This document shows, piece after piece, positions 7,038-64,000 of a stretch of DNA of 64,000 nucleotides (its first letter is position 1; every line of letters starts with the position of its first letter). The translations under genes were made by a program, and so were the position numbers. This DNA comes from Azolla caroliniana (Eukaryota > Plantae > Polypodiophyta): assembly GCA_043228905.1 (NCBI GenBank), contig JBHGNT010000018.1:10974001-11038000 (forward strand), read 5' to 3'. The notes under the pieces were generated by a model that worked only from the letters and a program-made list of their open reading frames with translations, ran no database searches and was not told the origin of the DNA.

Positions 7038-7671
7038 TGTCGTGCCTTTCGGCTCCGGATCGTTGCGTGAGTCGGGTGGGAACCGCCGAGGTTTTTGACT
7101 AGGAGGAAGAGGAATACAACTTAAGGCTAGTTATGAATAGTGGAAAGAGAAGTAAGATAGCAATCTCGTGAATCCCACGAATGTATTAGATTGATCAATC
7201 CTTGTATATTAATCAACAACCTTATACATATTTCTCTCCTCCTTATATAAAGATGGAAGAGGCTAAGCATGGCTTCATGCTTTTTCACCAAAAGTGTCCA
7301 TGCACACTAAATGTGCATGTGATGCTTTGTCATTTCCTAAGTATAGGGCTCATGCACGCTAGATGTGCATGAGTCACTTTTAATGTCACGTGTAAATAAA
7401 ATATTCACACCCTAAAGAATACATGATTTTTACCTTTTAATAAAGGTATGTGTAAATAAAGGTCTTATACATATTAAATCTATATGTATAACACTAAAGA
7501 TAAGTTATTACAATGGTAAAGTTGGGGTTTATATACGTGGAGGTGCAGGGTTCGAATCCTACCCTATGCACATGATAAATGTTTTGATATATTATTTATT
7601 TATTTATATGTATCTAAAATTCGATATATTATTTTATGGTTTTCACGTAGTGTGTGGAATACACTACGACA
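7038..7671 (-). repeat. 3' LTR of gypsy C1
   Basis: TGTCGT..ACGACA termini; homologous to 58048-58881; purine tract adjacent at 7672-7688. Confidence 0.88.
7503..7570 (+). promoter_or_regulatory. tRNA-like A/B-box module inside LTR (antisense to element)
   Basis: caatggtaa followed by GGTTCGAATCC at 7549-7559, tRNA-like spacing. Confidence 0.6.
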
Positions 7672-8229
7672 CTCGTCCCCTCCGAACCCGCACATCCTCC
7701 GGTATGTGCCGAAGTTCTCGATTCCTCATATCCGTCTTCACCCAAAGCTTCCTCCGATTCTCCCCTTATGTCGACTATGAGTTGTAATTCACTTTCTTCG
7801 CTTCCTGCATCACCGTGGTCTTCGTCCGATTGCTCCTCGTTGTCGGCCTTGGCTTGGATCACATAGGGTTTGTCGTTGGTCCGCTTCTTGAAAATCTATG
7901 CACATGATAAATGTTTTGATATATTATTTATTTATTTATATGTATCTAAAATTGGATATATTATTTTATGGTTTTCACGTAGTGTGTGGAATACACTACG
8001 ACACTCATCCCCTTCGAACCCGCACATCCTCCGGTATGTGCCGAAGTTCTCGATTCCTCATATCCGTCTTCACCCAAAGCTTCCTCCGATTCTCCCCTTA
8101 TGTCGACTATGAGTTGTAATTCACTTTCTTCGCTTCCTGCATCACCGTGGTCTTCGTCCGATTGCTCCTCGTTGTCGGCCTTGGCTTGGATCACATAGGG
8201 TTTGTCGTTGGTCCGCTTCTTGAAAATCT
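7566..8229. repeat. 332-bp tandem duplication spanning LTR start, PPT and INT 3' end
   Basis: 7566-7897 is nearly identical to 7898-8229 (duplicate ORFs at 7566/7898 and 7654/7986). Confidence 0.95.
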
Positions 8230-10696
8230 TCACCCGCTTCCCGGCTATAGGCACTCGTAGTATTGTTCCATCCAACTCGGACAGTCGGTACGTTCCGTTG
8301 TCGAAGACTTTCTGAACCTCGTATGGCCCGAACCACCTTTTCGCGAATTTCCGCATCGTTGTATGTTGATGGTCCAAACTACTGTCATAGACGATCACCC
8401 AATCTCCTTCTTCAATCCTCCTCGGTCGTAGTCAGTGCTTTGTGTCGAACCGGCTTTTGTTCCGGAATTGTGCTTCTTGTTGTCGGTGTATTGCTTCTGC
8501 TATGTCTGCCGGTCTTCCCTCTAGTTGTCGTATCCGGACTGCTAGTAGTTCTTCTCGGCTCATCTCTTCCTTCCACGGTAGCACTGTCCATGTTGCGATC
8601 GCGGTTTCCGTCGGCATTACCAGTGCTTGTCCGGTCATGAGTTCTGCTGGCATGTAACCGGTTACGAAGCTATGCGTTGTCCGATCCGCCCATAGTGCAT
8701 ACGGAAGCATCTGCGGCCAGTCCTTCACCTTTCCATCGCATGCCTTCGCAAGTGTTTTCACGATCGGACTATGTCCTCGTTTGATTTTCCCGTTGGCCTC
8801 CGGATTGTATGCCGTTGTCAGCGATGACCGAACTCCGTGTTTGGCGAAGAATCCCCTAGCTTTGTCCGAGTCGAGTTCTCCCCGGTCCGCAATCACTTGT
8901 CCTACGCACCCGTACCTGCAAAATACTTCCTCCAAAAGAAATTGGCATACCGCGGAACACGTTTTCCTTTGAAGCGCTCGACCTTCTACCTGATTCGTGA
9001 GATCTTCTCGAGCTAATACCAAGTATTTCTTTTGTCCGATCCCGGTCAGCATGGCCACTATGTCGACCATCCACTTGAAGTTGATTGTCGGTGAGAATGT
9101 CAGATGTAACTCATCTCGATGTCGAACCCCGGAGTAGACTTGACATTTCTCGCAGCTTTCTGTGAACTCCGCGATATCTTTGTACATTTTCTTCCACCAA
9201 TATTTTTGCTTGATCTTCACAAATGTTGCCCATGTTCCTCGGTGTCCAGCCCAATTGGATTCGTGAAACTCAGACATTATCTGGTTTCGTTGCTCTTTTG
9301 TCCCGACTACTCAAAGTGGTATACCATCCGGTCTTTTCGGCGCCCTCCATATTAATCCGTTTTCCAAGAAGAACTTTTGGACTTGCCTCTTCTTCCTTCG
9401 GATCTCGGCTCTTCTTCCTTTATCGTTTGTTGAATCCTCGGCCTCTTGTAACATCTTTCCGATCATCAAGCTTTCTCCCTCGTATTCTTCTTCCTGGAAT
9501 TCTCGGATTACGTTCACTCGGCATATGTGCTCCGATGCGAAGTAGTCTTCGGAAACTTCTTCATTATCCGATTCGGTTATGTCGTCTCCGAACCGAGCCC
9601 TTGATAACATATCCGCTACCGCGTTGTCCTTCCCCGAGATGTGTCGAACCTCCGGATTAAGCGACTTGACATATGCAACCCACCTTAGCATAGCTACATC
9701 CGGTATCGTACAACACCGCATCATCCCGAGTATCGGAAGACAATCCGTCTCGATCACCACTTCGGCGAAGCAGAATGATGTCGGTGCATCCGGCGCACCG
9801 GACAAGGCCAAGAAGGCCGGTTATCGGTTGAGCACAGAGATCGAAAGGACCAAGGACTTATGAAAGGTTATGGAGGAACAAATCCTCGACAACAAAGTGG
9901 AGCTGTCGTTGAGGGAAGTGCTCGATATCGCCAAGAAGGAGTTCCACGACTCCATCGTAGACTTGGTGAAGCGAAAAAGGCTTTCGACGGAGCCGGAGCC
10001 GGAGAAGCCGGTGGAGGTGCGAACGACGCACCTAGAAGACATGGCCGTGGAGGACGAATTGGTGGAAAGCCACTACTCGAGGCTACACTGGGCTAGGGCC
10101 ACTACGGAAACCCTTGTTCGGACCGGGGACGTCCAGGAGCCAGTGGTGGCGTTGGTAGACCACGGTTCGGAGATCAACTTGATTTCCATAGACTTCTACA
10201 AGAAGGGAAAGTGGCCGACCAACACCAAGCACGGGTGGAAGATACGGGCAGCAACGCGCGCCACGGAGGAGCTACACGGAGCCTACCCGCATGTATGAGT
10301 GAAAATCAGCGATGTCAAGATCGATCAACAGTTCTTCGTGTAGGAGACGTCCTCACATCCGGTGATACTCGAAGAACCGTACATCACGGCGGCACGGATG
10401 GAGACAAAGGTGTTGGACAACGGTTCGGCATATGCACGAGTCAAGAGCCAGGATGGGCGTCACTCGGTCTAGTTCCTGACGGTGCGACCGAACCATGAGC
10501 GTAACCGCGAGACCCTCCGTGGTGAAACCCGAGGGAATTTTAAGACAGGGCTATCAAGGCGTGGGGCCGCAATAGTCCGGACACCCCGGAAAAACCCCAC
10601 AGATGTACTATAGGCAAAAAGACCTGCACCATAGGTAGGAAATTTTGGTTCTCCGATAGCGGAGGTTGTGCGATAGCCGGCGTAGTTGACCGGGAA

Positions 10697-19100: not shown

Positions 19101-21984
19101 CCGTCAATGAAAATGGAACGGACTGGGATACCAAACTACAGAGTGCGTTATGGGCGTACAGAACTAGTTACAAAACAAGCATACAGTCAACACCGTTCTG
19201 ACTAGCGTTTGGATTGGAGGTTGTGATGCCGGTCGAATTTCAGGTACCGAGTTTGCGCATTCAGGTACAGAACCGATTATCAAAAGCCAAGTCGGAGGAG
19301 GTACGGCTCTACTAGGTCCTCGAACTAGGGGAAAAACGCGTCCACAACATGGCTGTGTTGGAACAGGAACAACGACGGCATAAAGTGTTTGTGGATCGAC
19401 ATCGGAACGCAAGGGAAAAGGAGTTCGCTGTGGGCCGAGCAGTGCTAGTTTTTCAAACGCGCATGGGCCATATGCTGGTGAAGTTACGTTTCCGCTAGAC
19501 CGGCCCATACTGGATAATTGGAGCGGAACAAGGCACGTTCCAACTAGGAACGCTAGCTGGGGAAGAATTACGACAAAAGGTGAATGGATTTCGGCTCAAA
19601 CCTTACCTGGGCCCTACGCCACCTAACCCATTCACCCCCGAATGGGACAAAGCCGGGGAATCCTCAGCGTAAAATGGACAGCCCCATTTGTACTATAATG
19701 TAAAAATAGGTGGTAAATAACCGTTACAAAAAATAATAAAAGAAGAAGAAAAAGAAGAAGATAGTGACTATTAAAACGACTAAAGGCATGCACAAACTCC
19801 TAGTTCAAGAACACGCGGCACCACGATGGCTCATCGCCCATTGAACCCTAAGCCACAAAAAGAAGGAAACAGAAGATTTTCTGCACAAAGCAGAAACCCG
19901 TCTTCTAGCTATCATCGCTCCCATCGCTCCTCCTCCTCACCTTCTTCCCCATCCTATCTCAGAGCTCCAACTCACCACAACCAACCGTCTCCTCCCCACG
20001 AACCTACTCTGGCGATGCCGATCTTTATCTCTACTGCCCTACGCCGATGGCTCGTGGAGAAACGCCTAGATGGTTACATCCGGGTCGCATAAGCACCTCC
20101 GCACCTGGACGCCATGGACATCGCCAACAGGCTTAACATCGACACGGTCACCAACTCTTCCATCCGGAAGAAGTTGGACCTATCCTCACTAGGAGAAAGA
20201 CATTTTGAAATACCTCCTGCAGAGGTGCTGCAGCGGTATTTTGGGCCATATTCCTCCTCCGCCAAGGCCTATAGAACAAAACAAATTCCGGATCCTTTCT
20301 TCCGTGAAGTTGCCAAGTTCCTGCTAGAAGTCGGTTGCGTACATGTCAACACATATGGGATGCCTAAGCAGAAAGTAGGCATCATCATCGATACCTTTGA
20401 AGGGCATGCCGTTGACTGGGGGGTTATCACAGAGCCAACGTTAAGGGAAGGCTTGCATGCGTACCAAGCAGGCAAAAAGCTCAGGCCGATCATCGAACAA
20501 TAACTTACGGTACTATTTCCACCCCGAGGCCTGCTAGCACCGCGACCCAGCTAACCCACGACCCCGCCCCGATCCGCAAAACGTAGGTTAGCAGAGTTAT
20601 CGGCCCCAGAGTGGGAAGAAGAACCCCAACCGGCCCAGCCAGACCCAAGGACAACACCTCCTACCGACCAGCCGGACACACGGATAACGCAGGAGGAACA
20701 ACCGAGACGCTCCAGGGAAGCAGCCCTAGAACCAGACATCGAAACACGACGGGAAAGCCCCAGACCAAAACGACGCAGATTGGACAAGAAAGATGGGCGG
20801 GGGTTGGTAAAAAACGCCCCCACCGCAATAGAGACACCGACCGAAGGCGAAGGTGCCGCAACAGTGGAACCGAATACCACCTTCGAAATCATCTAGGAGC
20901 CACGACCGATTATTACGACTCAGTCCCAACGAGGGAAAGCCGTATTGACGGCGGAAAGTGAGGTTTTGGCATATCCGGATATCCCGGATACGGCCGACGA
21001 GTTCAACGCCCTCTTACAGTTCGGTACTTCTTTTGATCTCATGGAGTTCTTGGCAACACAACAGGTCAAAGCCGCCCAACGAATGGCCGAGGAGCATGCG
21101 GAACGCTAGATGATCTAGGGCGCCCTAACATAAACAACGGAGAGCGACAATGAGGACCGGCTAGCCAGGGTCGGCAGATAGAGGAATGTCGAGGTACGGC
21201 GAGTGGGGATGGAGATACCACCCTTAAACACGGCCCTAGTCGAAGTCCATCGGGAACTAGCAAAGGTCAGCACGGGCGTCAAGGAGATGGCCATAAAAAA
21301 TTAGAATGTCTGGAAGTAGGTTAAACTGACCAAAGCCGAACTGCAAAAGGCCAACGCACGCATCGCCGAGTTGGAAGCTCACACGACTACGGCGGAACAC
21401 GCAACCCCGCCACCGAACCATGTCATCGACGCTCTAAAAGAACAAATCGAAGCTCAGATCGCCATCGCCTCAAAAGCAAAAAGGGTCGTGCAGTTAGCAG
21501 AATCCGAAATTGACTGTCTTCGCGCAGAACTACACCAATCCTCAGACAGAGAAAAGGAGATATGGGCTAATGGACGAAAGGCAGTAAAAACTCTTGAAGA
21601 AAAACTAGCTACGGAGGTAGCTCAACACATCCAGACAAAGGACGACAACGCACAATTACGAGAGGACTCGAAAAAATCGGAGGCGGCAATAGCAAGACTT
21701 CGGGCCTTATTAGAAAAAAAGAAGGTATGGTTCGATGAGCAGTCGGTGGTCGAACAAGACAGAAGGCATCAGCTCGAAATCCGCCTAAACAACGAGATGG
21801 GGAAATTAGAAGAACAACATGCAAAGGAATCCCAGCTGTGGGCGGGCCTGAAGGCCACGTATGAGGAAGCGACAGCCGTTAAACAATAGGAAATCGCAAA
21901 TCTCCAGAAGTCGATGGAAGACGCTGTCGTGAAGAATGTGCTTCACGATATAAAAATGAGCTTAAATGTTGTATTTAATAATAT

Positions 21985-22172
21985 TTGAGAGACTTGAACC
22001 CACATCCTTATATACGATGTACAATGTACATACCACTAGGCTAGGCTATTTATTTGTAAAAGTGTATAATAAATGTGCTACATGATATAAGAATGAAGCT
22101 ATATATTGTATTGAGGGACTTGAACCCTCAACCTTGTATACCAAGCACCAAGCATACACCACTAAGCTGGGT
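21985..22172 (-). promoter_or_regulatory. Two tandem tRNA-like A/B-box modules in solo LTR
   Basis: Minus strand TAGCCTAGTGG..GGTTCAAGTC (22043/22000) and CAGCTTAGTGG..GGTTCAAGTCC (22169/22126); 43-nt spacing. Confidence 0.7.
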
Positions 22173-22423
22173 TAGTTATTTTAGAATGCATTTTCATCAT
22201 TATACTTATCCCATATCTATTTTCATACATAGCCATCATTCATCACATGCAATGCATGTGCGCCAAATGGCGATCATGCATTACATGCAACTCATGCATT
22301 GCATGCATGCCATGCTCCCATACATTACCATATGCATGGCAACACTTATATAAAGAGGAGAAAGGGAAAACAAGGTAAGGAATCAAGAGAGAGTGAGAAA
22401 ATAATACAATCAATTAAAGAAGA

Positions 22424-22487
22424 CTAGCTCATTGGGTGGAGAACCTCTCGTTTCGAAGTTGAGATCGTGGGTTCAAATCAAGGGTCG
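22424..22487 (+). promoter_or_regulatory. tRNA-like A/B-box module downstream of LTR TATA
   Basis: TAGCTCATTGG at 22425 and GGTTCAAATC at 22470. Confidence 0.7.
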
Positions 22488-23724
22488 ATAGAGAATGTGT
22501 TCAGTTTGCGATCGAGGATTGTAAAGTTGGTAAAATATTATATTTTTAATATACATCATGTTTATATCATATACTCTTGTTCCTTGAATCATACTTTGTC
22601 TCAATCTTCTTTCTTGAAGCATACATTGTCTCTATCTTTTATCTATGCTCATCTCTCTCTCTCGCACACACACACACATTACTCGTAACTCTTCTTCTTA
22701 CTATCCTTAACCACTCTATCATCACCATCCAAGCCTTATTAAAAGTTAAGTTTCTTCAACTCCCCTTAACCTTAGTCCCCGCGACTTCGCCGCACGAACC
22801 ACAACTACCCCGACAACGCACGCATCTGTTGCCATGCCATCACAGATAACGTGCGGATCCTTCTCCAAACAAATCGGGAGAGGTTCACAGCGCAATTGAA
22901 AATGACGTTGGACAAAGGATGGATGACATGGGCAACCCAAGCAGCGGAATTGCACACGTATCGTGCGGACTGGGAGAACCGGCGAAAAGACGGTCGAGGT
23001 TTCTATAAACTAAATGAGGAGGGCATTGCGACCGTACGGGAGGACCTAGCGCAAGACTATCGTGCGCTAGCAGACCAACACTCCGAAGAACTCGCACAGC
23101 TCTTAGATGATTTTGGTGAAAGTCAGGAGGAGCTATTTCACCAAATCACGCAGGCCGACAACATGCGCACAAACGAGGAATCCAACGCGTCACCAATTCC
23201 GGCCCCAACCGAAGAAGAGGAACCTCAGGCCCGATCACCAGAGATGATAACGAGGGAGAATAGTGGGGACCGACGAGCGGAGTTCCCCACGGGACCAGAC
23301 AGCGAAACCACTACCCCACAAGAGGTCCAGCCGCAGGAGCCCACACTATCATCAAACCACGCGGAGAACGGTGCGGACCAGGCGGAATCTCCGCCCCACT
23401 CCCAGGAATATAGAAAAACGGCCAACACCACGGAGGACGTAACAATGGAGGCAGAGTCGCAGCCGACTGCAAGCACGACAACGGCGGAGCCCAACCCACT
23501 AACTCAAGAAGAGCCCATCGTACCCGGACCACCCACACACGGCGACGACAACTCCGGGAGAAACCAACCCGCCCAAACAGAGGAGCCACACCACAATGCA
23601 CCTACAGGCCCTACATCACCTCCGGACGAGGACACCACAGCAGAGCCGAACATCCGGGCCATTTTGGAAGAAGATTAAGGGATGGGTCCGACGTGCAAAG
23701 GCACTGTCCCATAGGCGTGCCAAG

Positions 23725-24165
23725 TGTTGTCCGCCAGAATAGTAACAGACGGACAAAAGCGTAGGAATAAGAAATTATATAAGAGCATAACGCATGTAAC
23801 GGTTCACGTAGGAAGCGTTAACGGCTAATTAGACCCTGCATATATAAAGGGCAGAAAAACCTCTGATAGAGGTGCGTGTAATTTTGGGGAATGTAAAGAA
23901 ACGCCTTATAATAGAATACTATCTTCTCTGATTTTCTGTGTATAGCTACAACTAGTTCAGAGTGGGTGTCTTGATTACTTAAGCGTTGTAGTACGTAAGT
24001 GTAACCCTGAATAGGGATTCGGTTGTAGCCGTCTTCCCTTATACGTTGATAGGTTACAGGGGTTCTACCCTTACGCAATACGCTTATACACTTGTTCGTT
24101 GTTCCACACCCACTTGAGGTCTAGGTCAAAGGACTGACCGCGGACCGTGTTCCTAAACGGCAACA
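23725..24165 (+). repeat. 3' LTR of E2
   Basis: TGTTG..CAACA, TATATAA near 23841, homologous to E1 LTRs. Confidence 0.9.
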
Positions 24166-24752
24166 CATTTCTCTTCAGAAGCTCCCCCAACAGTCGTTGA
24201 TTTTCTTGTTCCAATGCGAGAAACTTCTCTTTCAAGCATTGCAACTCCGAAAAAACGGATTGATATTCTTGAGCGCTAACAGTGGCCATAGTATGAGAGA
24301 AAAGAGGAATAAGAGATTAGTATGAAGGGAGGGAGAAGTAAGAAGATAAAAGAAAAGAAGGAAGGAGACCATAATCGGTTTAAACTATCAGGAGCAGTAC
24401 TAAGATAGAGAAGTACTGTCAGGAACAGTACTAAGATAGAGAAGGAATTAGTACTAAAAGATGAGGATTAGTACTAAGGGAGGTGTAGAACTCTCGAGAG
24501 AAGGAAAGAGTGAGTGAGAGAGAGAGAATGATGATAACAAAAGATATGTATTATGTTAAGAGAATACACAATAGTAGCTAGGAGGCTTAAGACTGGCGTT
24601 GAACCGATTTGGTTCAAAATAATGCCTTGTGCCTCCTTTTATAGTGTTCTCAGGAGTACTCCTGAAGTTTCTAGAATGTTCTAGAGAAATCTAGAATATA
24701 CATCAATTTTCTATAGTAAAACTTAAATGAAAACAATATCCTTCGTATTACA
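24166..24752 (-). mobile_element. 5' remnant of another LTR element (short LTR, degenerate PBS, gag start)
   Basis: TGTA..TACA at 24547-24752 with minus-strand TATAAAA; TGTTATCA PBS-like near 24531-24539; coiled-coil ORF MATVSAQEYQ.. cut by the E2 LTR. Confidence 0.5.
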
Positions 24753-24756
24753 ACAT

Positions 24757-24820
24757 ATAGTTTAATGGTCAAAAGCTCGACCTATGTAACATAAGGTCAT
24801 GGGTTCGAGTCTTGCCATAT
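24757..24820 (+). promoter_or_regulatory. Orphan tRNA-like A/B-box module
   Basis: TAGTTTAATGG at 24758 and GGTTCGAGTC at 24802. Confidence 0.6.
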
Positions 24821-25460
24821 CATGACATCATGCATGTGATGAATCAAGAGAAGAATATAGAAAGCATCGATGCTCGAGAATTTAAAGAATGTGAAAGAAG
24901 ATCAAAGAACATTGTTATCCGAGGGATTAAAGAGGAGAGTGTGGAAACACCTGCATCCCTTGGAGAGGCTATTGGTGAATTTTTTAGCATGGCATTATGG
25001 TATGTCAGATGTGAATGTATTGTTGGGAATGTGTCCTCCAGTGGGAGGAGCCAATTGTTTGGGCCGAGAAGAGTCGACAGTCGAGGACAAGGAGGAGCTG
25101 ATTGTTCGGGTTGAGTACCGAGAGTCGAAGAGTCGACAATGATAATAATAATTATGGTATGTCAAATGCGAATGTATTGTTGGGAATGTGTCCTCCAGTG
25201 GGAGGAGCCGATTGTTCGGGCCGAGAAGAGTTGATAGTTGAGGACAAGGAGGAGCCGATTGTTCGGGTTGAGTACTGATAGTCGAAGAGTCGACAATGAA
25301 GTAGGGGATACATTTGTCAATATCCCATATGATGTATCAGTACAAATACATCTACGGAAAAAATATGATTGAGAGAGAGTGAGAATTGAAACAATACTGT
25401 ATGTGCCTCTATTGGTGCTAGTGATAGAGTAGAGAGGTCGAGAGAGAGTGGCGCCATAGC

Positions 25461-45000: not shown

Positions 45001-46710
45001 TAAGCTCCTTGAAGAACGATGAATCGTGGACAGATGAGGATCTCCATCCAATCCAAAAGAAAGCATACCAATACTTCCTTAAAGATGGATACTTTGGAAG
45101 CACCCAAAGAAACGGAAAGGAGCCCCATTGCATGTTGTATGCAATAAAGAAGAGCAACAAACACTTATAATTGAGTTCCATGATAGGGCTCGGGCAGTGC
45201 ATCGAGGAATATGGGTGACTTTGGCAAAATTAAAAGAAAGGTATTGGTGACCTGGATTCTACAAGGTCTGGCAAGTTATGTTGAGACATGCAAAGAATGT
45301 CAGATTTACTCGAATATTTGCCACAAAGATGAGCTTCACCCCACCTATCCATTATCGATACACTACAAATGGATGGTAGACATTGTAATGATGCCATTAG
45401 GACTATGGCAAATGAGATACCTTGTACTAGCAATAGAGGATCTCACAAACCAAGTGGAGGATCGAGCACTGAGAAATAAAACGACATCGGCAATATGTTG
45501 GTTCCTTCTATAAGATGTCATATGTAGATATGGGTGTGTCGGGAAGATAGTAGCAGATAGAGGCGAGTTGGATGCTAATGAATCGAATGAGTTCTTTTCA
45601 AGATTCGGGATCAAGCTATCACTTACTACGGCTTACAACCCAACGGAGAATGACAAAGTAGAATGGGGTCATAGGCCTATCGTGAAGGCATTAGTAAAGT
45701 CTTATCTAGGGAAGCTTAGAGAATGGCCTAGATTGATACCATATGTGTTATGGGCGGATAGGACAACAGACAACACCATCATTGGGTTTATGCCAACATA
45801 ACTCATTATGGTTCAGAAACTTGTCATGCTAATAGCACAAAACATCATTTCATGGACCGCTTTACCAGGGGAAGATAGAATTAGTAGAGAAGATTTGCTA
45901 GCCACAAGTATCCGACAAATGGAGCAAAGACCTGACGATGTCGAAATGGCAATCAACTGCGTAAAGAAAGCTCAACTAAAGAACAAAGAAGCTTTCGATA
46001 AAAAACAACGACTTCTCCCAAAGAAGATAGAAGAAGGCAACTAACTAGGTTTTAGTCTATGACAGTAGTTTGGACAATGAACACAGTGCCACTCAGAAGT
46101 TCTCGAAAAGAAGGTTTAGACCATAAGTAATCAAGAAAGTAAAAGATAATGTTACTTATCAGCTTACGGAGTTAGATAATACTCATCTTGCTGTACCAAT
46201 TGCAGGGAAAAGAGTTAAACAAGGTACACTAAGGGAAAACAACGAAGTACCGTGATTTCATGTTATGGGTGTCGTCAAGGAACTGTTTCACGACATTAAA
46301 CATTTATACTTAAGTACTATACTAAGTGACATTTGAGAGATTTGAACCCATTGCCTCATATACCAATTAGAAAGTTCACACCACTACGCTAAGTTGTTTT
46401 ATTTTAAAATATTATTGTACTTATGCCATGTAAATTGTTATACATGAGATCAAATGAGAAGGATGGTTATCATGCATCACATGTAATGCATGAGCGCCAA
46501 ATGGCAATCATACATTGCATGCATTCCATGCATTGTATGCATGTCTTGTACCCTTGTACCCTCACATGAATCATATGCATGGGTCCACCTATATAAGAAA
46601 AGAAGAAAAATAATAGAAGGGATCAAGAAATAAATAATAAAACCTTAGTTAACTCATTGGTAATGTGTATTGTCTTTTAAAATTGAAGTCAAGGGTTGAA
46701 AGTCGGAATT

Positions 46711-46760
<50 letters not shown>
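42066..46760 (+). mobile_element. Ty3/gypsy family C copy 3, old AT-rich relic with partial LTR
   Basis: ALIDHGSEIN, SYSNRWF, FPQGATNS, FLDE, VDTSPTG, WMVDIV..EDLTNQVE; LTR from TGTCGT at 46270 to a (CT)n tract at 46714-46760. Confidence 0.88.
46333..46706. promoter_or_regulatory. Divergent pair of tRNA-like modules around CATGCA cluster and TATA
   Basis: Minus strand TAGCGTAGTGG (46391)..GGTTCAAATC (46348); plus strand TAACTCATTGG (46650)..degenerate GGTTGAAAGTC (46694); TATATAA near 46590. Confidence 0.6.
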
Positions 46761-56276: not shown

Positions 56277-58130
56277 GATTGTTAGAAATTGACGCTTTCA
56301 AAACCTTCTCCTCTCGGCCACAACCGAGGAAACACGAATCAATGCAGCAGTAAATCGAAAACATAGAGAGAGACTCGAATGCACAGGGTTTGACGTGGAA
56401 AACCCTAGACGGAAAAAACCACGGGAGTGCAAGACTCCAACTATCACTATACGCAGGGAATGTACAATGGCGAGCTGCAAGGCGACGACCTTGAGCTCGC
56501 TGTTCTCGCCACAGGCGGCGGTATTACATAGAGGCGTCGACCTCTTCCTTTCTCTCTCTCTCTCACTCTCTCTCTCTGCTGCTCTCACTTCGCTCTCTCT
56601 AAGTGGAAAACAGCAAAATGAGCAACAACAACAAAACTGTTTGCCCTAAGTCATATTTATACACATATGACTTTCGGGCTATTTACAAATATAGCCTCAA
56701 GGGCCCTTGGCAAACATATTCACAAATATGTCCCCGCATCCGGATCTCTCTCTGGGGTACATTCGTCATCCGGCTCCGTAGCCGGGGTCTTCATCATCCG
56801 GATCCGGAACCGGGTCTTCATCATCCGGCTCCGATACCGGGTACTCCTCATTCGGGTCTTCATTCCCGATTCCCGGACATCCGACCATCCCATCCGGAGA
56901 GACCGTAATCCCAACACATCCTCCCATCTCTGCGCCCTTGCGCAATAACACGGCCTTCTTCCTCAATGAAGCATCCGAGGTGTGTAAACCGGACCTCCAT
57001 CCCTTGGTCGACGATCTGTCCGACCGACACCAAGTTCTTCGTGATTGTCGGAACGTGTAGCACATTCATGAGTTTCCCTTTCTGCCCGACATTGCTCAAG
57101 GGAACTTCTCCGACATTCGCGATTGGATGCGGAGTGTCGTCTCCGGTTGCAACTACTCCCGGTTGCATCGGTTTTTCTAGGTATGAGAACCACTCCTTAT
57201 GGCGCCGGACTCAACGTACCACACCTCGTCCGATTTCGGGGTGGTTTGCTTCATTGAGTTTGCTTCGTGTCTCGTCACGAAGGCATACCCTTTTCCGGCT
57301 TTTCTGGATCCTTCGGTGTAGTGCGATAGCTGCCGATTTCCGTTGTCGGTATGTCTGGAACCAGCTCCGGAGCCGGTCCTCTCCGACTCGGCATGCTTTT
57401 TCTAGAACTCGCTCTCCTTGTGGCCTTTCTTGCCACAATACCAGCATTTCGTGGCGGGTTTCCCTTGCCGGTTCTCATCGCCTCGACCCCCCCTATTTCC
57501 CGAGGGTCTGGAATTGTTGTCGGTATCATTTCGGTGCCTCCTTCCTTGATCTCGTCGACCGCCTCCATTGCGCACCAACTCGCCTCATCCTCCACGACCA
57601 CGGGGCCTATCTCCCTCCGTGTACAACATCTTGTGGTCGGTGCGCGTGGTTCTCCTCTTCTAGGAGCATCGACTATAAGTCGAAAAAGGATGGCGTATTC
57701 TCCCGGGTACACACAGCAGTTCGGAACACCCCAAACTTTGACGCCAAACCCCCGAGACAGACCTGGACCATCTCGCTTTCCTCGATGTTCACATCGATGG
57801 AAGCTAAGGAGTCGCATATGTCCTTGATCTTCGAGGTATAGTCAGCCACCGACAAATCGCGTTGTCGTAGGTTGCTTAACTCCTGTCGGAGAAGAAGCTT
57901 CCTGGCTGTGGTGCTCGCGGCGAAGATCTTCTTCAGATCTTCCCACGCACCCTTCGGCGTTTTTGCATCCCGAACGTAGCTTAATAGCTATTTGCCCACA
58001 GAAGACGCGAAATAGTACAACACTTTGCTCGCCGATTGTTCCCACGCTGTCGTAGTGTAGGTTGCACACTATGCGGAAATTATATTTTTGTCCCTCCGGA
58101 TAGAGAATGGAGTGCTCGGGGAGAACCGGA

Positions 58131-58226
58131 AGAAAACGGCATACCGGCAAGGAGGAAAAACGGCATACCGGCAAGGAGGAAAACAGCATACCGGCAAGGA
58201 GGAAAAACGGCATACCGGCAAGGAGG
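58131..58226. repeat. Four copies of a 23-24-bp tandem repeat in U3
   Basis: aggaaaaacggcataccggcaagg. Confidence 0.95.
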
Positions 58227-58269
58227 AGCCGGATAAAGAGACATAAATGTAAAAAGAAGGGAAATACTC

Positions 58270-58340
58270 ACTACTGCGCAGGGCGTGATTCGAACTCTGC
58301 ACCTCCACATTGACAAACCCCAACCTTACCATTACATTAA
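58270..58340 (-). promoter_or_regulatory. tRNA-like A/B-box module in C4 LTR
   Basis: Minus strand taatgtaatggtaagg..gcagagttcgaatcacgcc; orthologous to 7503-7570. Confidence 0.65.
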
Positions 58341-58885
58341 ATTATCTTAAGTGTTTTAAATATAGATTTAATATGTATAAGACCTTTATTTATGCATACC
58401 TTTATTAAAAGGTAAATCGTGTATTTCTTTAATATATGAAAAAGAAAAAACACGAGACACTAAAAATAACTCATGCACATCTAGCGTGCATGAGCCCTAT
58501 ACTTAGGAAATAAAAAAGCATCACATGCACATTTAGTGGACATGAACACTTTTTGTAAAAATAAAAAAGCATGAAGCCATGCTTAGCTCTTCCTTCCTTA
58601 TATAAGGAGGAGAGAAATATGTAAAGGGTTGTTGATTTTTGGATTAAGAATTAATCAATAGAAAAATTATTCGTGGGATTCACGATTTATACATCTACTT
58701 CTCTCTTAACACCCTAAGTACCAATTAATATAGTATACTCGTGTGATTCACGAGTTTCTTATCTTTCTCTTTGCTATTTACTCATAATTAATCTCTATCT
58801 CACGAACTCCTTTCTCCTAGTCCAAGACCTCTGTGGTTCCCACCCGACTCACGCAACGATCCGGAGCCGAAAGGCACGACACAGT

Positions 58886-58902
58886 TGGTGAACCCGACGT
58901 GA
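58886..58902 (+). promoter_or_regulatory. PBS complementary to tRNA-Trp 3' end
   Basis: TGGTGAACCCGACGTGA 4 nt after the LTR; matches my recollection of the plant tRNA-Trp end UCACGUCGGGUUCACCA. Confidence 0.85.
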
Positions 58903-58919: not shown

Positions 58920-60958
58920 ATGGAGGCTCAACAAGCTAACAATATGATGGCGATGTTCGAACGGATGCTTCAAGAACAACGCACGATGTCGGAGATTTCG
59001 GCATCAGTAGAGCGGCTCGTGCAACGCAACGGGCAATTTAATGGTAAGGATGTGTCGCGATATTTGCAGGACTACAAGGCGGAGATGCTCCGGTGCCGGG
59101 CTTCGGAAGGACTGCAAGTGACATCCTTTAACCGGGTGGCGACCGACGGGCTTCAAGGGAGTATCCACGGGTTGCAACAACAAAATCCGACGTGGGAAGC
59201 ATTCGAAGAGGCGTTAAAGACCACGTTTGCCATCGAGGACTCCTCCAAGGCAACGCGGAGGGGATTCGAGGATTGGGTGGAAACGTCAGGTAAGGGGCTG
59301 AAGGTCCTCGAAGTGTTTTCGGCATTCGAAAGTCGGTTCGGGAGGTTGTCCGCGAGAGATCAAATTGTTCTTGCACCGGACAAAGTCATCATGTTTTTGC
59401 GAGCTGTGGACGTCCGGGACCGGAAAGATCTCGGAGTGCTTCTTGAGGACACGACCACCGAAAGCGGCCTCACCGAAACATGGGAAAGCGTGCGGGATAT
59501 CGTCGCGCGGTACACGAAGAGGGGGCAATGGCTTGCCAACGAAGAAAAGAGGGTTTCGGAACCGATTCCGAAACCGAGAACGGGATTGGAAGACCATCAA
59601 CCGAGGGCTCGGGAGATTACGGCCGAGAAGGGAGTCGACGCGTCTACGGTGGAGCAGCTGCTGAAGGAGATGGAGAATCTAAAGATCGCGATAGTGAAGA
59701 AGTCAGATGACCGCCCCACAAGCTCCAAATATACGGATCGACGGTGCATATGGTGCGATAGCGCCGAACACGATCGGAGGGATTGCGACGACCATAAGGA
59801 GGCGCTACGACGGGATCTCATCTACTACGAGGGAAACCGGATTCATTCGATGGACTCTCGGAAGCCACTCCGACCGAACTTCCGGAAAGGCGGCATGAAG
59901 AAGGTGCTCGAGGAGGAGTTAGCGGCAAGAAGCAACTATGCGACAACCGCGGGAATATGTGTCGGGGAGTCATCGGGAGCGAAGGCGTCTTTCTGCCGGA
60001 GGTGCTAGGAAACACCGAGAAAACCGACTCCAACGATATCCGAAACACCGCGGAAGGCGTCCGGGAAGCTACGGGATGGGAGTGCCCTGTCGATAAGAAT
60101 AGCATATACGCCCTATGTCAATTACATGAGGTGTATGTGGACGAGAAACGACGGCGCACGGAGGATGCGGCCGGACCATCGAAGATACCGGAAAGCTGGA
60201 ACTCCGGAGGTAAGGGAAAAGAAAAGGCGACTCCGGCATTCAAGCTCGCCTCGGACATAGAACAACAAACCGACTTGAAAAGAGTGTTCGAGGAAAGAAT
60301 CTTGGATAGCCGGGTAGATTTTTCGCTGCGGGAACTACTCGGAATAGCGAAGAAGGAGTTTCACGATCTTCTCGTGGATCTTGTAAAAAGGAAGAGACAA
60401 AGTACGGAGGAAAATGCTCCAAGGGTGAATGCACATACCGTTTCAATGAACGACACCGAAGTGGAAGGCGAAATTCCGAACTCCCACTATACAAGGCCAC
60501 ACTGGGCACGTGCGACTACGGAGACTCCGGTCTGAATCGGCAACATCAAAGAACCTGTGCTAGCATTGATTGATCACGGATCGGAGATCAACTTGATGTC
60601 CAAGGAGTTCTACCGAAAGGGGAAGTGGCCTATAAACACCAACCATGGATGGAAGATTCGGGCAGCCACGAAAACGACAGAAGACCTATTTGCGGCTTGT
60701 CCGGATGTGACGGTAAAGATCGGGGATGTCGAAATTGACCAAAATTTCTTTGTGCAGGATGAGGTTTCACATTCTGTCATCCTCGGCCAACCCTTTATCA
60801 CGGCTTCACGGATGGAGACGAAGGTGCTCGATAGTGGTGCGGCTTTTGCGCGAATTCGGAGCCAAAACGGAGGGAAATCCGTCCAATTCCTAACGGTGCC
60901 GGCAAATCACGAAAGGAACAAGAGGGAACTCTTGCCCCAAGTGAGAATGGATTTTTAA
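58920..60958 (+). pseudogene. Gypsy C4 gag-protease ORF (frameshift near 59995, stop at 60533)
   Basis: FNGKDVSRYL, knuckle CIWCDSAEHDRRDC, PR ALIDHGSEIN..ILGQPF. Confidence 0.88.
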
Positions 60959-63900
60959 AGCAGACTGTTGCGGAGTGGGGAAGTGATAGTCCGAGAAGCC
61001 CTGATACCCCACACAGGAAGAAAACTCTCGGAGCAAAACAAGTACGAATCGGCCCGGATGGGGCATCTACGTACACGGCCGTAACCGGAGGAATGAAGAA
61101 ACAATACCGACAAGTGGAGGATAAGTTACGGTCGGCATCAATAATAAAAGAAGACGAAGAAATCGTGGGAGTGATCGAGGAAGTGTTCTATGGGAATACA
61201 CTACAACGGCTTGAAGAGCTTGCGGAAGATAAAAGCCAAGGGAACCGGGTAGTCCCGGTGGAATCGGTCGAGATGTACGAGATCGTTGCGAAAATGGGGC
61301 CGGATGCGCTCCGCAAAGAAGAAGCAATGGTAAGTACGAAATACAAGACCGTGGAGAAGAAGGTGAAACCGGCCGCGGGACCACTACCCGCCGATAGCGA
61401 ACAAAAGAAGAAAGAAGTCTCGGGAGATCCGACACTTCGGAAGTCCGTGGATATCGGACATGCCTTCACAGATGAGACCCGGAAGAAACTTCGGATCGGT
61501 GGAGGTGGGTTCCTCTTACAAGAAGAAGAAAAACGGTTTCGAGAGATGTTGGAGCAACATGGCAAAGCATTCGCGTTCACATCGAGGGAGATCGGATGCA
61601 TTGATCCAAAGATAGTGGAGCCGATGGTGATCTTCACGATTGATCATGTACCGTGGAACCTAAAGCCGATTCCGGTGCCACGGGCGCATATTCCGAAAGT
61701 CATCGACTTACTCAAGGAGAAGGTGGCGATGGGGATTCTAGAGCCATCAAGTGCTCCGTACTCAAATCGATGGTTTACGGTTCCGAAGAAGAATGGGTCA
61801 CTCCGATTCATCCAAGACTTGCAACCGGTGAACAAGGTCACGATCCGGAACTCGGGAGTCGGTCCGATAGTGGACGAATTCGCGGAAGCTTTTGCCGGAC
61901 GTGCGATATACTCCATCGGGGACCTATACTCGGGGTATGACCAATTCCAACTAGCCGTGGAGAGCCGAGACATCACTACCATGCGGACACCGATAGGACT
62001 AGTTCGAATGTGCACACTACCACAAGGAGCGACAAACTCGGTTGCACATATGATGAACGCGATGAACAAGGTGCTTCGAGATTGCATCCCGGAGGTAACG
62101 ATGCCGTTTCTAGATGACATTCCGATGAAAGGATGCGCGGTGGAAGAAAAAGATGAGACTATGGATGATCGGGGATGCCGAAAGTTCGTGGTCGACCATA
62201 TTCATGATTGCGAGAAAGTGTTGCGAAAGCTAGAAGATGTGCACCTAACACTTTCCGGGGAGAAATCGGCATTCGGGCAAGAAGAAATATTGGTGGTCGG
62301 ACATCTATGTGGACCCTACGGCCGAAGACCGTCACCAACAAAGATCGATGCGATTCAAGCTATGAAGGAAGTATGTGAGTCAACATCGGAAGTCCGAAGG
62401 TTTCTGGGTGCGTGTGCATTCTATCACATATGGATTCCGCACTATGCACATATAGCGGACCCGCTCTATCACTTGTTGCGGAAAGGTAAGAAATTCGAGT
62501 GGAAACCGGAACACATTAAAGCCATGAGGAAGCTCAAGAAGATACTATGGAGGGAGGAATCACTTAAGAAGCCAAGCTACGAGCGGCCAATCATAGTAAC
62601 GGTTGATACAAGTCCAACCGGTATCGGGTGGGTCATCAATCAAGCCGACTCGGATGGTTCGCGGTATCCGATCCGATTTGGAGCAAAGGTCCTCAACGAA
62701 AGGCAACGCGGATATGCACAAGTCAAAAGAGAATTGTGGGGAGTCGTGTCGGCGATAAAATCGGATCGGGATTATTTGATCGGAGCTGAAGTGGTGATCG
62801 AGACGGATTGTCTTCCGATACTCGGGATGATGCGGTGTTGTACGATACCGGATGTGGCTATGCTAAGGTGGATTGCATATGTCAAGTCACTTAATCCGGA
62901 GGTTCGACACATCTCGGGGAAGGACAACGCGGTAGCGGACATGTTATCAAGGGCGCGGTTTGAAGACGACATAACCGAATCAGATAATGAAGAAGTTTCC
63001 GAAGACTACTTCACGTCAGAACACATATGCCGAGTGAACGTGATCCGAGAATTCCGGGAAGAAGAATACGAGGGGGAAACCTTGATGATCAGGAAGATGC
63101 TACAAGAGGTCGAGGATTCAACCAATGATAAAGAAAGGAGAGCCGAGATCCGAAGGAAGAAGAGGCAAGTCCAAAAGTTCTTCTTGGAAAACGGTTTAAT
63201 ATGGAGGACGCCGAAAAGACCGGATGGGATACCACTTCGAGTAGTCGGGACGAAAGAGCAACGAAACCGGATAATGTCCGAGTTCCACGAATCCGATTGG
63301 GCTGGACATCGAGGAACATGGGCAACTTTTGTGAAAATCAAGCAAAGATATTGGTGGAAGAACATGTATAAAGATGTCGCGGAGTTCACAGAAAGCTGCG
63401 AGAAATGTCAAGTCTACTCCGGGGTCCGACACCGAGATGAGCTGCATCCGACATTCTCACCGACAATCAACTTCAAGTGGATGGTCGACATTGTAGCTAT
63501 GCCGACCGGGATTGGACAAAAGAAATACTTGGTGTTAGCTCGAGAAGATCTCACAAACCAAGTTGAAGGTCGAGCGCTTCGGAGGAAAACGTGTGCCGCG
63601 GTGTGCCAATTTCTTTTGGAAGAAGTGTTTTGTAGGTACGGCTGCGTAGGACAAGTGATTGCGGACCGGGGAGAACTCGACTCGGACAAAGCTAGGGGAT
63701 TCTTCGCCAAACATGGAGTTCGGTTAACGTTGACAACGGCCTACAATCCGGAGGCCAACGGGAAGATCGAACGAGGACATAGTCCGATCGTGAAAGCACT
63801 TGCGAAGGCATGCGACGGAAGGGTGAAGGATTGGCCACAAATGCTTCCGTATGCACTATGGGCGGATCGGACGACGCATAGCTCCGTGACCGGTTACATG

Positions 63901-64000
63901 CCGGCAGAACTCATGACCGGACAAGCACCGGTAATGCCAACGGAAACCGCAATCGCGACATGGACAATACTACCGTGGAAGGAAGAGATGAGTCGGGAAG
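60949..64000 (+). CDS. Gypsy C4 pol (RT-RH-INT), open to window edge, in -1 frame to gag-PR; missing from the ORF track
   Basis: Hand translation shows no stop from 60949 to 64000: LPQG, FLDD, VDTSPTG, FHESDWAGH..CEKC, WMVD, ADRGE, NGKIER. Confidence 0.93.

Follow-up and report, generated by a model that had tools for sequence, protein, structure and literature searches.

tRNA-like A/B-box modules in the LTRs of Phygy-type gypsy elements of Azolla caroliniana as candidate TFIIIC docking sites

Why does the long terminal repeat (LTR) of a gypsy retrotransposon carry what looks like the internal promoter of a tRNA gene, pointing away from its own Pol II promoter? The question is raised by a solo LTR at 21925..22815 (plus strand) of a 64,000-nucleotide stretch of Azolla caroliniana DNA, here called the window. 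The original prediction held that four LTRs of one family carry a tRNA-like module antisense to the element and upstream of the TATA box, once in tandem, and that two of them carry another module in sense just behind the TATA box. All seven stretches that it named lie where it placed them. With a profile of two blocks, trained only on modules of other contigs, the five antisense modules among them score 33–42 bits, as does a sixth that it had missed, at 24758–24812 in a Tcn1-like LTR; the best score in 15 block-shuffled windows is 21.2. A preset tRNA-box scan gives 6 matches in the window vs 0–5 in 20 shuffles, and misses the module at 58295 and the sense module at 46.7 kb. The four LTRs do carry the antisense module; rather than being grouped together as originally proposed, they fall into two pairs, 22 kb with 46 kb and 7 kb with 58 kb, and no BLAST match connects the pairs.

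The solo LTR has TGTCG...CGACA ends and a 4-bp ACGC target duplication on both sides (21921–21924 and 22816–22819); its insertion site is a coiled-coil-like ORF, and the flanks at 21925 are diverse among public contigs. Its partner is the 3′ LTR of a related Phygy-type element at 46270..46760 (plus strand), which ends after a CT repeat, where it is cut, and holds an antisense B-box (46338–46348) and A-box (46381–46391), a TATA box at ~46590 and a sense module at ~46650–46705 whose B-box is broken. The second subfamily is represented by a 3′ LTR on the minus strand (7038..7671), following an integrase ORF (8435–9310, minus strand), with the antisense module on the plus strand (A-box 7506–7516, B-box 7549–7559) and without a sense module, and by the 5′ LTR of a coding element (58048..58881, plus strand), which is preceded by ACGC and has its antisense B-box at 58286–58296, A-box at 58329–58339 and TATA box at ~58599. 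Downstream of the latter LTR, the internal region (58920..63999, plus strand) comprises a gag-like ORF, a fragment of a protease and an RT-RNaseH-integrase frame, open over 1055 aa, that leaves the window. Pfam matches in this frame are limited to RT, RNase H and integrase, in gypsy order, with no match to the archaeal RNase H that separates Phygy from TatI; as regards a chromodomain, the integrase tail of the 7-kb element gives a weak SH3_Tf2-1 match only, and the 58-kb frame leaves the window. The openness of this pol frame was counted in favour of the docking reading proposed below. The closest named integrase matches are Riccia proteins, at about 50–63%.

The primer-binding site of the 58-kb element (58886..58902, plus strand) is presumably that of tRNA-Trp. 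It agrees with the Phygy entry in supplement 3 of PMC6317226. The same site also follows the LTRs of three close relatives of the 22-kb LTR (L045, L049 and L073), loci that were picked by that very site. NCGN stands before 11 of the 28 single called LTR starts in our loci and 7 others follow a purine tract; the LTRs alone measure 0.6–1 kb. The solo LTR and the other three probably belong to a Phygy-type gypsy lineage, marked by a 4-bp NCGN target duplication and a tRNA-Trp primer site. Phygy itself, a non-chromovirus Ty3/gypsy element of Physcomitrella, has the same duplication, primer site and gypsy domain order, and has no extra domain, as in the 1055-aa frame; the term 'tRNA-like' is absent from the main text of the Phygy paper, and its consulted sections describe no LTR modules (PMC6317226).

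Two antisense modules lie in tandem on the minus strand of the solo LTR, a2 at 21980..22050 (A-box 22033–22043, B-box 21990–22000, spacing 44) and a1 at 22106..22176 (A-box 22159–22169, B-box 22116–22126). The pair arose when the first ~145 bp of the LTR were duplicated in tandem, and because the duplicated unit takes in the LTR's own start, two separate SINE insertions at this place are rejected. Between the modules and the predicted Pol II TATA box (22347..22354, plus strand; aligned across related LTRs) lies an array of nine overlapping CATGCA matches (22245..22340, plus strand), which we take to be RY-like. As predicted, the antisense module is part of the LTR and not a fresh SINE: its flanks are LTR sequence, and a target duplication, body or tail of its own was sought around the modules with no more result than scattered AT-rich repeats of 6–10 nt at varying distances. 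Real tRNA genes aside, the ~119 kb of locus DNA covered, both internal and far-flank, contain no dispersed modules, and 2% of the aligned contigs run on into unlike DNA.

In the antisense module, the box residues and the distance between the boxes are conserved. The 19 Phygy antisense modules align without gaps, with invariant columns A14, T16, G19, G53, T55, A58 and C61, and all but one of 20 antisense modules (19 of 20) have a spacing of 44 from A-box to G53, bearing out the tRNA-like spacing that had been proposed. The A-box had been given as TAGC; its conserved core is instead T13-A14-R15-T16-G18-G19-T20. Also kept, outside the canonical boxes, are A44, G45 and G46. Mean identity among 14 subfamily representatives is 0.67 for the A-box and 0.73 for the B-box, vs 0.45 between the boxes and 0.42 and 0.33 in the flanks, figures that are inflated across families because some modules were found by means of the motif itself. 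Between subfamilies, the inter-box sequences agree no better than by chance (2–10 of 22). Of 10 LTR pairs, 7 align across the module without a gap, whereas equal windows elsewhere in U3 are gap-free in 0–33%.

The within-family variant test is free of such picking. In the 22-kb family, variants at a frequency of at least 6% occur at 1 of 44 box sites vs 17 of 64 inter-box sites (p=0.0005), or with p=0.004 once a private change of the window copy, at position 8 of the A-box of a1 (22169), is counted; neither box of a2 has any variant at 6% or more. DNA between the boxes thus drifts while the boxes stay intact. When set against the spacer that separates the two modules, where 8 of 72 sites vary, the boxes of this family do not differ significantly (p=0.15). 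Whole-module identity is not above that of the remaining aligned U3, and several close pairs agree less in the A-box than in the inter-box sequence (0.55 vs 0.81; 0.73 vs 0.84). On balance these comparisons support, at the level of sequence, the earlier suggestion that the boxes of the antisense module and their spacing are selectively kept.

The sense module tells a different story. At 22418..22490 (plus strand; A-box from 22425, B-box 22470–22480, spacing 46) it is weaker and labile: it fits 16 of 18 generic box positions, yet its 14.2 bits lie inside the shuffle range, and in its counterpart at 46650 two positions of the B-box core are mismatched. Its boxes are no better kept than its inter-box sequence, and sister LTRs have an A-box remnant or nothing. 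Bracketing of the Pol II promoter by antisense and sense modules, the arrangement originally put forward, does exist in six LTRs, but these belong to one clade only.

Could the module function as a Pol III unit that regulates the element, through a short antisense transcript or simply through being transcribed, as a decoy, a small RNA source or an interference with Pol II? Both boxes and the 44-nt spacing would suit such a unit, as would the persistence of three T-stem pairs (51–63, 52–62 and 53–61), the first of which pairs in 19 of 19 modules with six two-sided changes; an RNA-level role could explain this pair as well as the kept A44, G45 and G46. Five of 30 predicted transcripts have a fold z-score of −2 or lower, and foamy-virus LTRs hold A/B-box Pol III miRNA genes (PMC3993851, sections consulted). 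Against this, the 30 predicted transcripts share no fold, and the CAA start motif occurs in only 16 of 30 modules. The first T4 lies 4–376 nt downstream of the module or is absent, and its distance varies even among close relatives (7 nt in L045_a1, 6 nt in L049_a1 and 55 nt in a1 of the window); a T5 run follows the sense module of the 22-kb LTR after 63 nt. The cloverleaf fares no better: 49.6% of cells pair in the antisense modules vs 48.8% in shuffles, and the D, anticodon and acceptor stems pair at shuffle level, leaving three of the four tRNA stems unpaired. A conserved cloverleaf, a shared fold and a shared terminator were each tested and rejected, and the small-RNA unit contemplated in the original prediction appears doubtful to us. 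One sequencing run, guessed to be RNA, yielded three short partial contigs, which have no bearing on expression.

Since the box residues and their spacing are kept and the RNA structure is not, we favour a role as DNA. We suggest, at about an even chance, that the A/B-box module found in LTRs of several gypsy lineages is a docking site for TFIIIC and TFIIIB that opens or shields the Pol II promoter. An old tRNA gene or SINE head may have been captured into U3 and spread by ordinary LTR copying, with the tandem copies arising through duplication in U3 and the sense copy through inverted duplication. The module points away from the TATA box; TFIIIC bound to it would load TFIIIB on the TATA-facing side, and the docked factors would hold the element's promoter open or shield it from silent chromatin. 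An insulator role of the antisense module is plausible. According to the consulted sections of PMC11346459, TFIIIB is loaded upstream by TFIIIC, the DNA around tRNA genes is poor in nucleosomes, and both TFIIIC-only sites and tDNA insulators are known. The same source counts against docking on two points, as TFIIIC needs no fixed spacing, working best over 30–60 bp, and methylation of the DNA hampers its binding. Also against docking stand the box-versus-spacer result (p=0.15), a module identity equal to that of the rest of U3, and the distribution of the module. Among 35 related LTR ends whose start was called, 26 have no module at all, and neither has L057, whose gag is 75% identical to that of the 58-kb element, so that the module is dispensable at the lineage level.

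Alternatively, the modules could be functionless passengers, left behind by an ancient SINE or tRNA insertion, whose boxes look conserved through shared origin and motif-based picking. That most related LTRs lack the module, that sister LTRs have a damaged sense copy or none, and that neither overall identity nor the box-versus-spacer test sets the module apart would all fit; LTRs with tRNA-like parts are moreover 'not a few' in Repbase (PMC10886601, sections consulted). We nevertheless consider it unlikely, as the variants within the 22-kb family avoid the boxes in a test free of picking, seven columns are invariant despite chance-level identity between the boxes, and the spacing is free of indels inside an indel-rich U3. 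A second gypsy lineage, moreover, shows the same orientation and the same side of the TATA box.

This second lineage is represented by a putative Tcn1-like chromovirus whose 5′ LTR occupies 24386..24827 on the minus strand, with gag starting at 24289 and the antisense module at the 5′ end of the LTR, on the plus strand (A-box from 24758, B-box 24802–24812, spacing 45; TATA box ~24640). The element is predicted to be self-priming: the sequence that follows the LTR end complements, but for a bulge of one base, the sequence located ~25 nt behind the TATA box, where the transcript start is predicted. Only 41 of its gag codons lie inside the window; in relatives, the domains Retrotrans_gag, Ty3_capsid and DUF4939 are present. 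As the viral and prokaryote collections contain no relatives, the Tcn1-like LTR stands as a single case. Among the 13 LTRs in which both are placed, this one included, G53 of the nearest antisense module lies ~160–305 nt upstream of the TATA box. The gag tree suggests that module-bearing LTRs may fall into three separate groups, with 58 of 67 tblastn matches kept, nine shorter than about 60 aa dropped and many rows under half filled. Going further, one might propose that Phygy-type and Tcn1-like lineages independently built outward tRNA promoters into their LTRs, with TFIIIC/TFIIIB as a self-carried anti-silencing barrier in heterochromatin; we hold this only tentatively, well short of even.

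Two further readings fare worse. TFIIIC/TFIIIB on the cDNA or the integrated copy could act as a tether that guides nuclear position or integration, or the module could be a landing pad for elements that target tRNA genes. Phygy target choice follows an NCGN motif (PMC6317226, sections consulted), which argues against this. Three PBS-anchored LTRs (L017, L030 and L070) do have real tRNA genes or pseudogenes upstream, but these LTRs are module-free, and no insertion lies directly upstream of any of the 30 modules, which makes tethering improbable. An RNA-level tRNA mimic, bound by tRNA-binding or -modifying proteins through D-loop and T-loop contacts, is very improbable even though the exact spacing and the kept G18, G19, T55, C56, A58 and G46, in tRNA numbering presumably the residues of the elbow, would suit it, since three of four stems are unpaired and the best-kept module, being antisense and in U3, would not be presented by RNA of the element itself.

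LTRs with Pol III boxes are already known from Cassandra, Helenus and foamy viruses. The Helenus TRIMs (TRIMp3; Kojima 2024, PMC10886601) are the closest known case and had been passed over in the original prediction: in the consulted sections of that paper, their LTRs hold tRNA-derived sequence, conserved near boxes A and B, which is not a functional tRNA and was probably captured from a SINE or tRNA. Unlike the hosts described here, among which are coding elements that have a TATA box (the 58-kb element codes for gag and pol), Helenus elements are non-coding, 311–1263 bp long and, among plants, reported there from Selaginella only. The RNA of Helenus is proposed to be made from its Pol III promoter, whereas the main module here lies antisense in U3, and Pol III would be halted by T-runs well short of the end of the element. 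Cassandra TRIMs similarly have a Pol III internal promoter in plant LTRs, but it is of type 1, derived from 5S, and drives the transcript of a non-autonomous element (cited via PMC10886601). Foamy virus SFVagm is likewise an autonomous retroelement that has a Pol II promoter and whose U3 holds Pol III units with A/B boxes; their product is a hairpin RNA with a fixed terminator (PMC3993851), neither of which is conserved here. tDNA insulators and ETC sites resemble our proposal in using A/B boxes as DNA elements that organise chromatin, but are host loci of yeast and animals, and the consulted sections of PMC11346459 show no plant or LTR case. Our literature search returned no description of antisense Pol III boxes in LTRs of coding gypsy elements from plants.

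Should the boxes be bound by TFIIIC and protect the promoter, the retrotransposon would carry its own insulator, built from a host tRNA promoter. Plants would then offer a natural example of insulation by TFIIIC and a ready test of whether TFIIIC barriers work in them, with natural controls at hand in LTRs bearing zero, one, two or three modules and in a close relative without any. Even without a barrier role, such LTRs scatter through genomes many A/B-box sites that are invisible to tRNA finders. ARAGORN calls no tRNA in the window or on any module, and Rfam gives no match to the tRNA family in either; the sole related match is a 17-nt tmRNA T-arm at 22113–22129.

The antisense module, a tRNA-derived A-box/B-box pair upstream of the TATA box in Phygy-type gypsy LTRs, is on sequence evidence a real, selectively kept cis-module with a putative function. 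Nineteen Phygy antisense modules align without gaps; A14, T16, G19, G53, T55, A58 and C61 are invariant among them (positions in tRNA numbering), and T13, G18, T20, A44, G46 and C56 are kept in at least 90%. Among 14 representatives the A-box had an identity of 0.67 and the B-box one of 0.73, compared with 0.45 for the stretch between them and 0.33–0.42 for the flanks, the box values being inflated because modules were picked by motif. In a picking-free test, public contigs of four runs were aligned to 21960–22200, and the full variant table (27 rows) had variants at ≥6% at 17 of 64 inter-box sites versus 1 of 44 box sites (p = 0.0005), the sole box variant being a degenerate position in a single contig. 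At 22169 the window copy alone differs from the canonical base; once this is counted, p = 0.004. The module is also free of gaps in 7 of 10 LTR pairs, as against 0–33% of same-size windows elsewhere in U3. The original prediction of selection on the boxes thus holds for antisense modules but not for sense modules downstream of the TATA, where the boxes of five copies (0.65, 0.69) are not better conserved than their inter-box (0.68). Only an A-box remnant is left at the sense site of metagenome locus L077, and no sense module was found in L001, L061 or L074. An A at position 57 abolishes the CpG of the B-box in 9 of these 14 representatives; this may reflect decay or methylation avoidance.

All seven stretches originally named as modules are present. 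A tRNA-box scan, its criteria set before running, gave 6 matches in the window versus 0–5 across 20 shuffles, and 30 in 204,589 locus bases versus 2–4 across three shuffles. A second search used a profile built from 11 modules of other contigs, two of which belong to a relative close to the 22k LTR. On it the window's six antisense modules scored 33–42 bits (maximum over 15 shuffled windows, 21.2); the sense module at 22424 scored 14.2, inside the shuffle range, and that at 46650 has a broken B-box. The four LTRs first grouped as family C form two pairs that BLAST does not connect to each other. The two tandem copies at 22 kb are there as described, and originate from a tandem duplication of the first ~145 bp of the LTR, common to L045 and L049 and absent from L073.

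These LTRs lie among stacked fragments of copia, gypsy and LINE elements. The 22k copy (21925–22815) is a solo LTR with ACGC directly on both sides, while the 58k LTR (58048–58881) has ACGC before it and, after it, a primer-binding site that we read as tRNA-Trp, then a gag-like ORF followed by a 1055-aa open frame (RT-RNaseH-integrase) in which no archaeal RNase H was found. The ACGC next to each LTR fits the NCGN type of Phygy, and the 58k primer site fits its tRNA-Trp. Phygy, a Physcomitrella lineage, is marked by a 4-bp NCGN duplication and tRNA-Trp (Neumann et al., PMC6317226). Integrase relatives are for the most part metagenome proteins, matches from named genomes being Riccia; we take the elements to be of bryophyte, probably moss, origin. 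Module-bearing coding elements include 58k, 7k (LTR 7038–7671, minus strand), 46k (LTR 46270–46760), L009, L056 and L061. Modules also occur in L001, L053 and L077, whose long ORFs match nothing in Pfam.

A search with LTR end plus primer site retrieved at least 122 metagenome loci, about half of the estimated total, from which 118 non-redundant LTR ends were analysed; sampling is narrow, since a single accession series accounts for the majority of the contigs listed by name (80). Where a 5′ terminus was called, modules are present in 9 of 35 ends and absent from the other 26, although some starts may be miscalled. Further antisense cases occur in L009, L077 and the 3′ LTR of L053, and the inventory of window and loci stands at 20 antisense and 10 sense modules. 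Both types face away from the TATA. In the 13 LTRs with TATA and antisense module placed, the closest such module has its G53 some 160–305 nt upstream of the TATA; in five 22k-clade LTRs the sense G53 is 106–144 nt downstream of it. The distribution is patchy, L057 having a gag 75% identical to that of 58k over 200 aa, yet a module-free LTR. The best agreement between a sense and an antisense inter-box is 13 of 22 positions, against 11 as the 99th percentile of shuffles and with many pairs compared; this hints at an inverted duplication. Sense-only modules with spacing 48–49 occur in other Phygy-type LTRs (L029:1559–1783, where it is doubled, L104 and L119); their inter-box is little like the 22k type, and they are possibly a separate capture.

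The modules are not tRNAs: a gene-finder check of the kind first suggested, run with ARAGORN and Rfam, called none of them. Nor are they fresh SINEs, as no target duplication flanks them; this supports the claim that the antisense module is part of the LTR rather than a random SINE insertion. Internal and far-flank DNA of the loci, some 119 kb and so a small sample of a genome, showed no free module, real tRNA genes aside. Public contigs have varied flanks at the LTR start among the matches listed, and 2% of contig records continue into unlike DNA.

TFIIIC is known to load TFIIIB upstream of the A-box, tRNA genes sit in nucleosome-poor DNA, and TFIIIC sites can organise chromatin even without Pol III (PMC11346459). 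Because TFIIIC-read features are kept and features required for an RNA product are lost, we give about an even chance to the module being a putative DNA docking site through which the Pol II promoter is opened or shielded. Host TFIIIC would dock at the A and B boxes of the antisense module; as modules face outward, TFIIIB would come to lie on the TATA side, and the docked factors would open or shield the LTR's promoter. Canonical TFIIIC binding leaves the fixed 44-nt spacing and the kept A44–G46 unexplained. A regulatory Pol III transcript is the next candidate, though an unlikely one. In its favour, the three pairs closing the T-loop hold, with pair 51–63 intact in 19 of 19 (6 two-sided changes, which may be one event), and foamy viruses have Pol III miRNA genes in U3 (PMC3993851). 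Against it, no other cloverleaf pairs hold (49.6% of cells paired versus 48.8% shuffled) and the first T4 lies 4–376 nt downstream or is absent; a fold with z ≤ −2 is predicted for 5 of 30 transcripts. We consider a passenger relic somewhat less probable still. Boxes compared with the spacer between two modules (8 of 72 sites) give p = 0.15, several close pairs resemble each other less in the A-box than between the boxes, and identity over the whole module equals that of the rest of U3; the variant table speaks for kept boxes. A tether or landing pad seems improbable, and an RNA mimic very unlikely.

Pol III promoters inside LTRs have precedents in Helenus and Cassandra. Both are TRIMs, short and non-coding (PMC10886601), whereas hosts of the present modules include coding elements. 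According to Kojima, tRNA-like parts occur in "not a few" Repbase LTRs, although the study itself was confined to TRIMs (PMC10886601); a term search of its supplement gave no moss entry. The words "tRNA" and "Pol III" are absent from the P. patens TE paper PMC7466625, and the passages on tRNA in PMC3729371 give gene counts only. The largely open-access literature searched describes no A/B-box modules that are antisense and selectively kept in the LTRs of coding plant gypsy elements.

Several further features accompany these LTRs. Dense RY-like CATGCA arrays, presumably candidate B3-factor sites, lie between antisense module and TATA (22245–22340 and 46470–46580; also L045, L049, L056 and L073), with 6–9 overlapping matches per LTR. 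Repeats of AAACCCTAA, which we take to be telobox-like, follow the TATA in module-free Phygy-type LTRs, as arrays in L039 and L057 and a single copy in L043, and are possibly another route to recruiting host chromatin factors. The B-box is nearly palindromic in L056, L001, L061, L074 and L077, the L061 and L074 modules scoring on both strands, and B-box-like hairpins recur within CCATGG repeats in U3 of the same five loci. A short hairpin-like motif just before the purine tract is common to 7672–7720, 8004–8050 (minus), L053, L056, L074 and L077. A 334-bp tandem duplication, 99% identical (7564–8229), covers the 3′ end of the element together with the beginning of the LTR, and stops at the module's 3′ edge; it is either real or an assembly artefact.

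L001:847–2715, L053:830–2767 and L077:1520–2914 have Phygy-type LTRs and primer site around one ORF of 465–646 aa, for which neither Pfam nor tblastn against the 58k gag gave a match; in L077 and L053 the 3′ LTR is reached without any pol. Three LTR ends that are PBS-anchored and module-free have tRNA genes or pseudogenes no more than about 1.8 kb upstream, at L017:2244–3042 (three copies, one cut by the contig end), L030:1150–1224 and L070:39–127, exceeding, on three loci only, the expectation from ~430 tRNA genes per moss genome. The sixth antisense module, a single copy, lies at the 5′ end of a separate LTR (about 24386–24827, minus strand). This belongs to a Tcn1-like stretch of 5′ LTR, self-priming site and gag start (24167–24827, minus), cut by an LTR of another family (23725–24166); the 41 codons present of its gag match Ty3_capsid/DUF4939 proteins, and self-priming is predicted for it, as in Tcn1.
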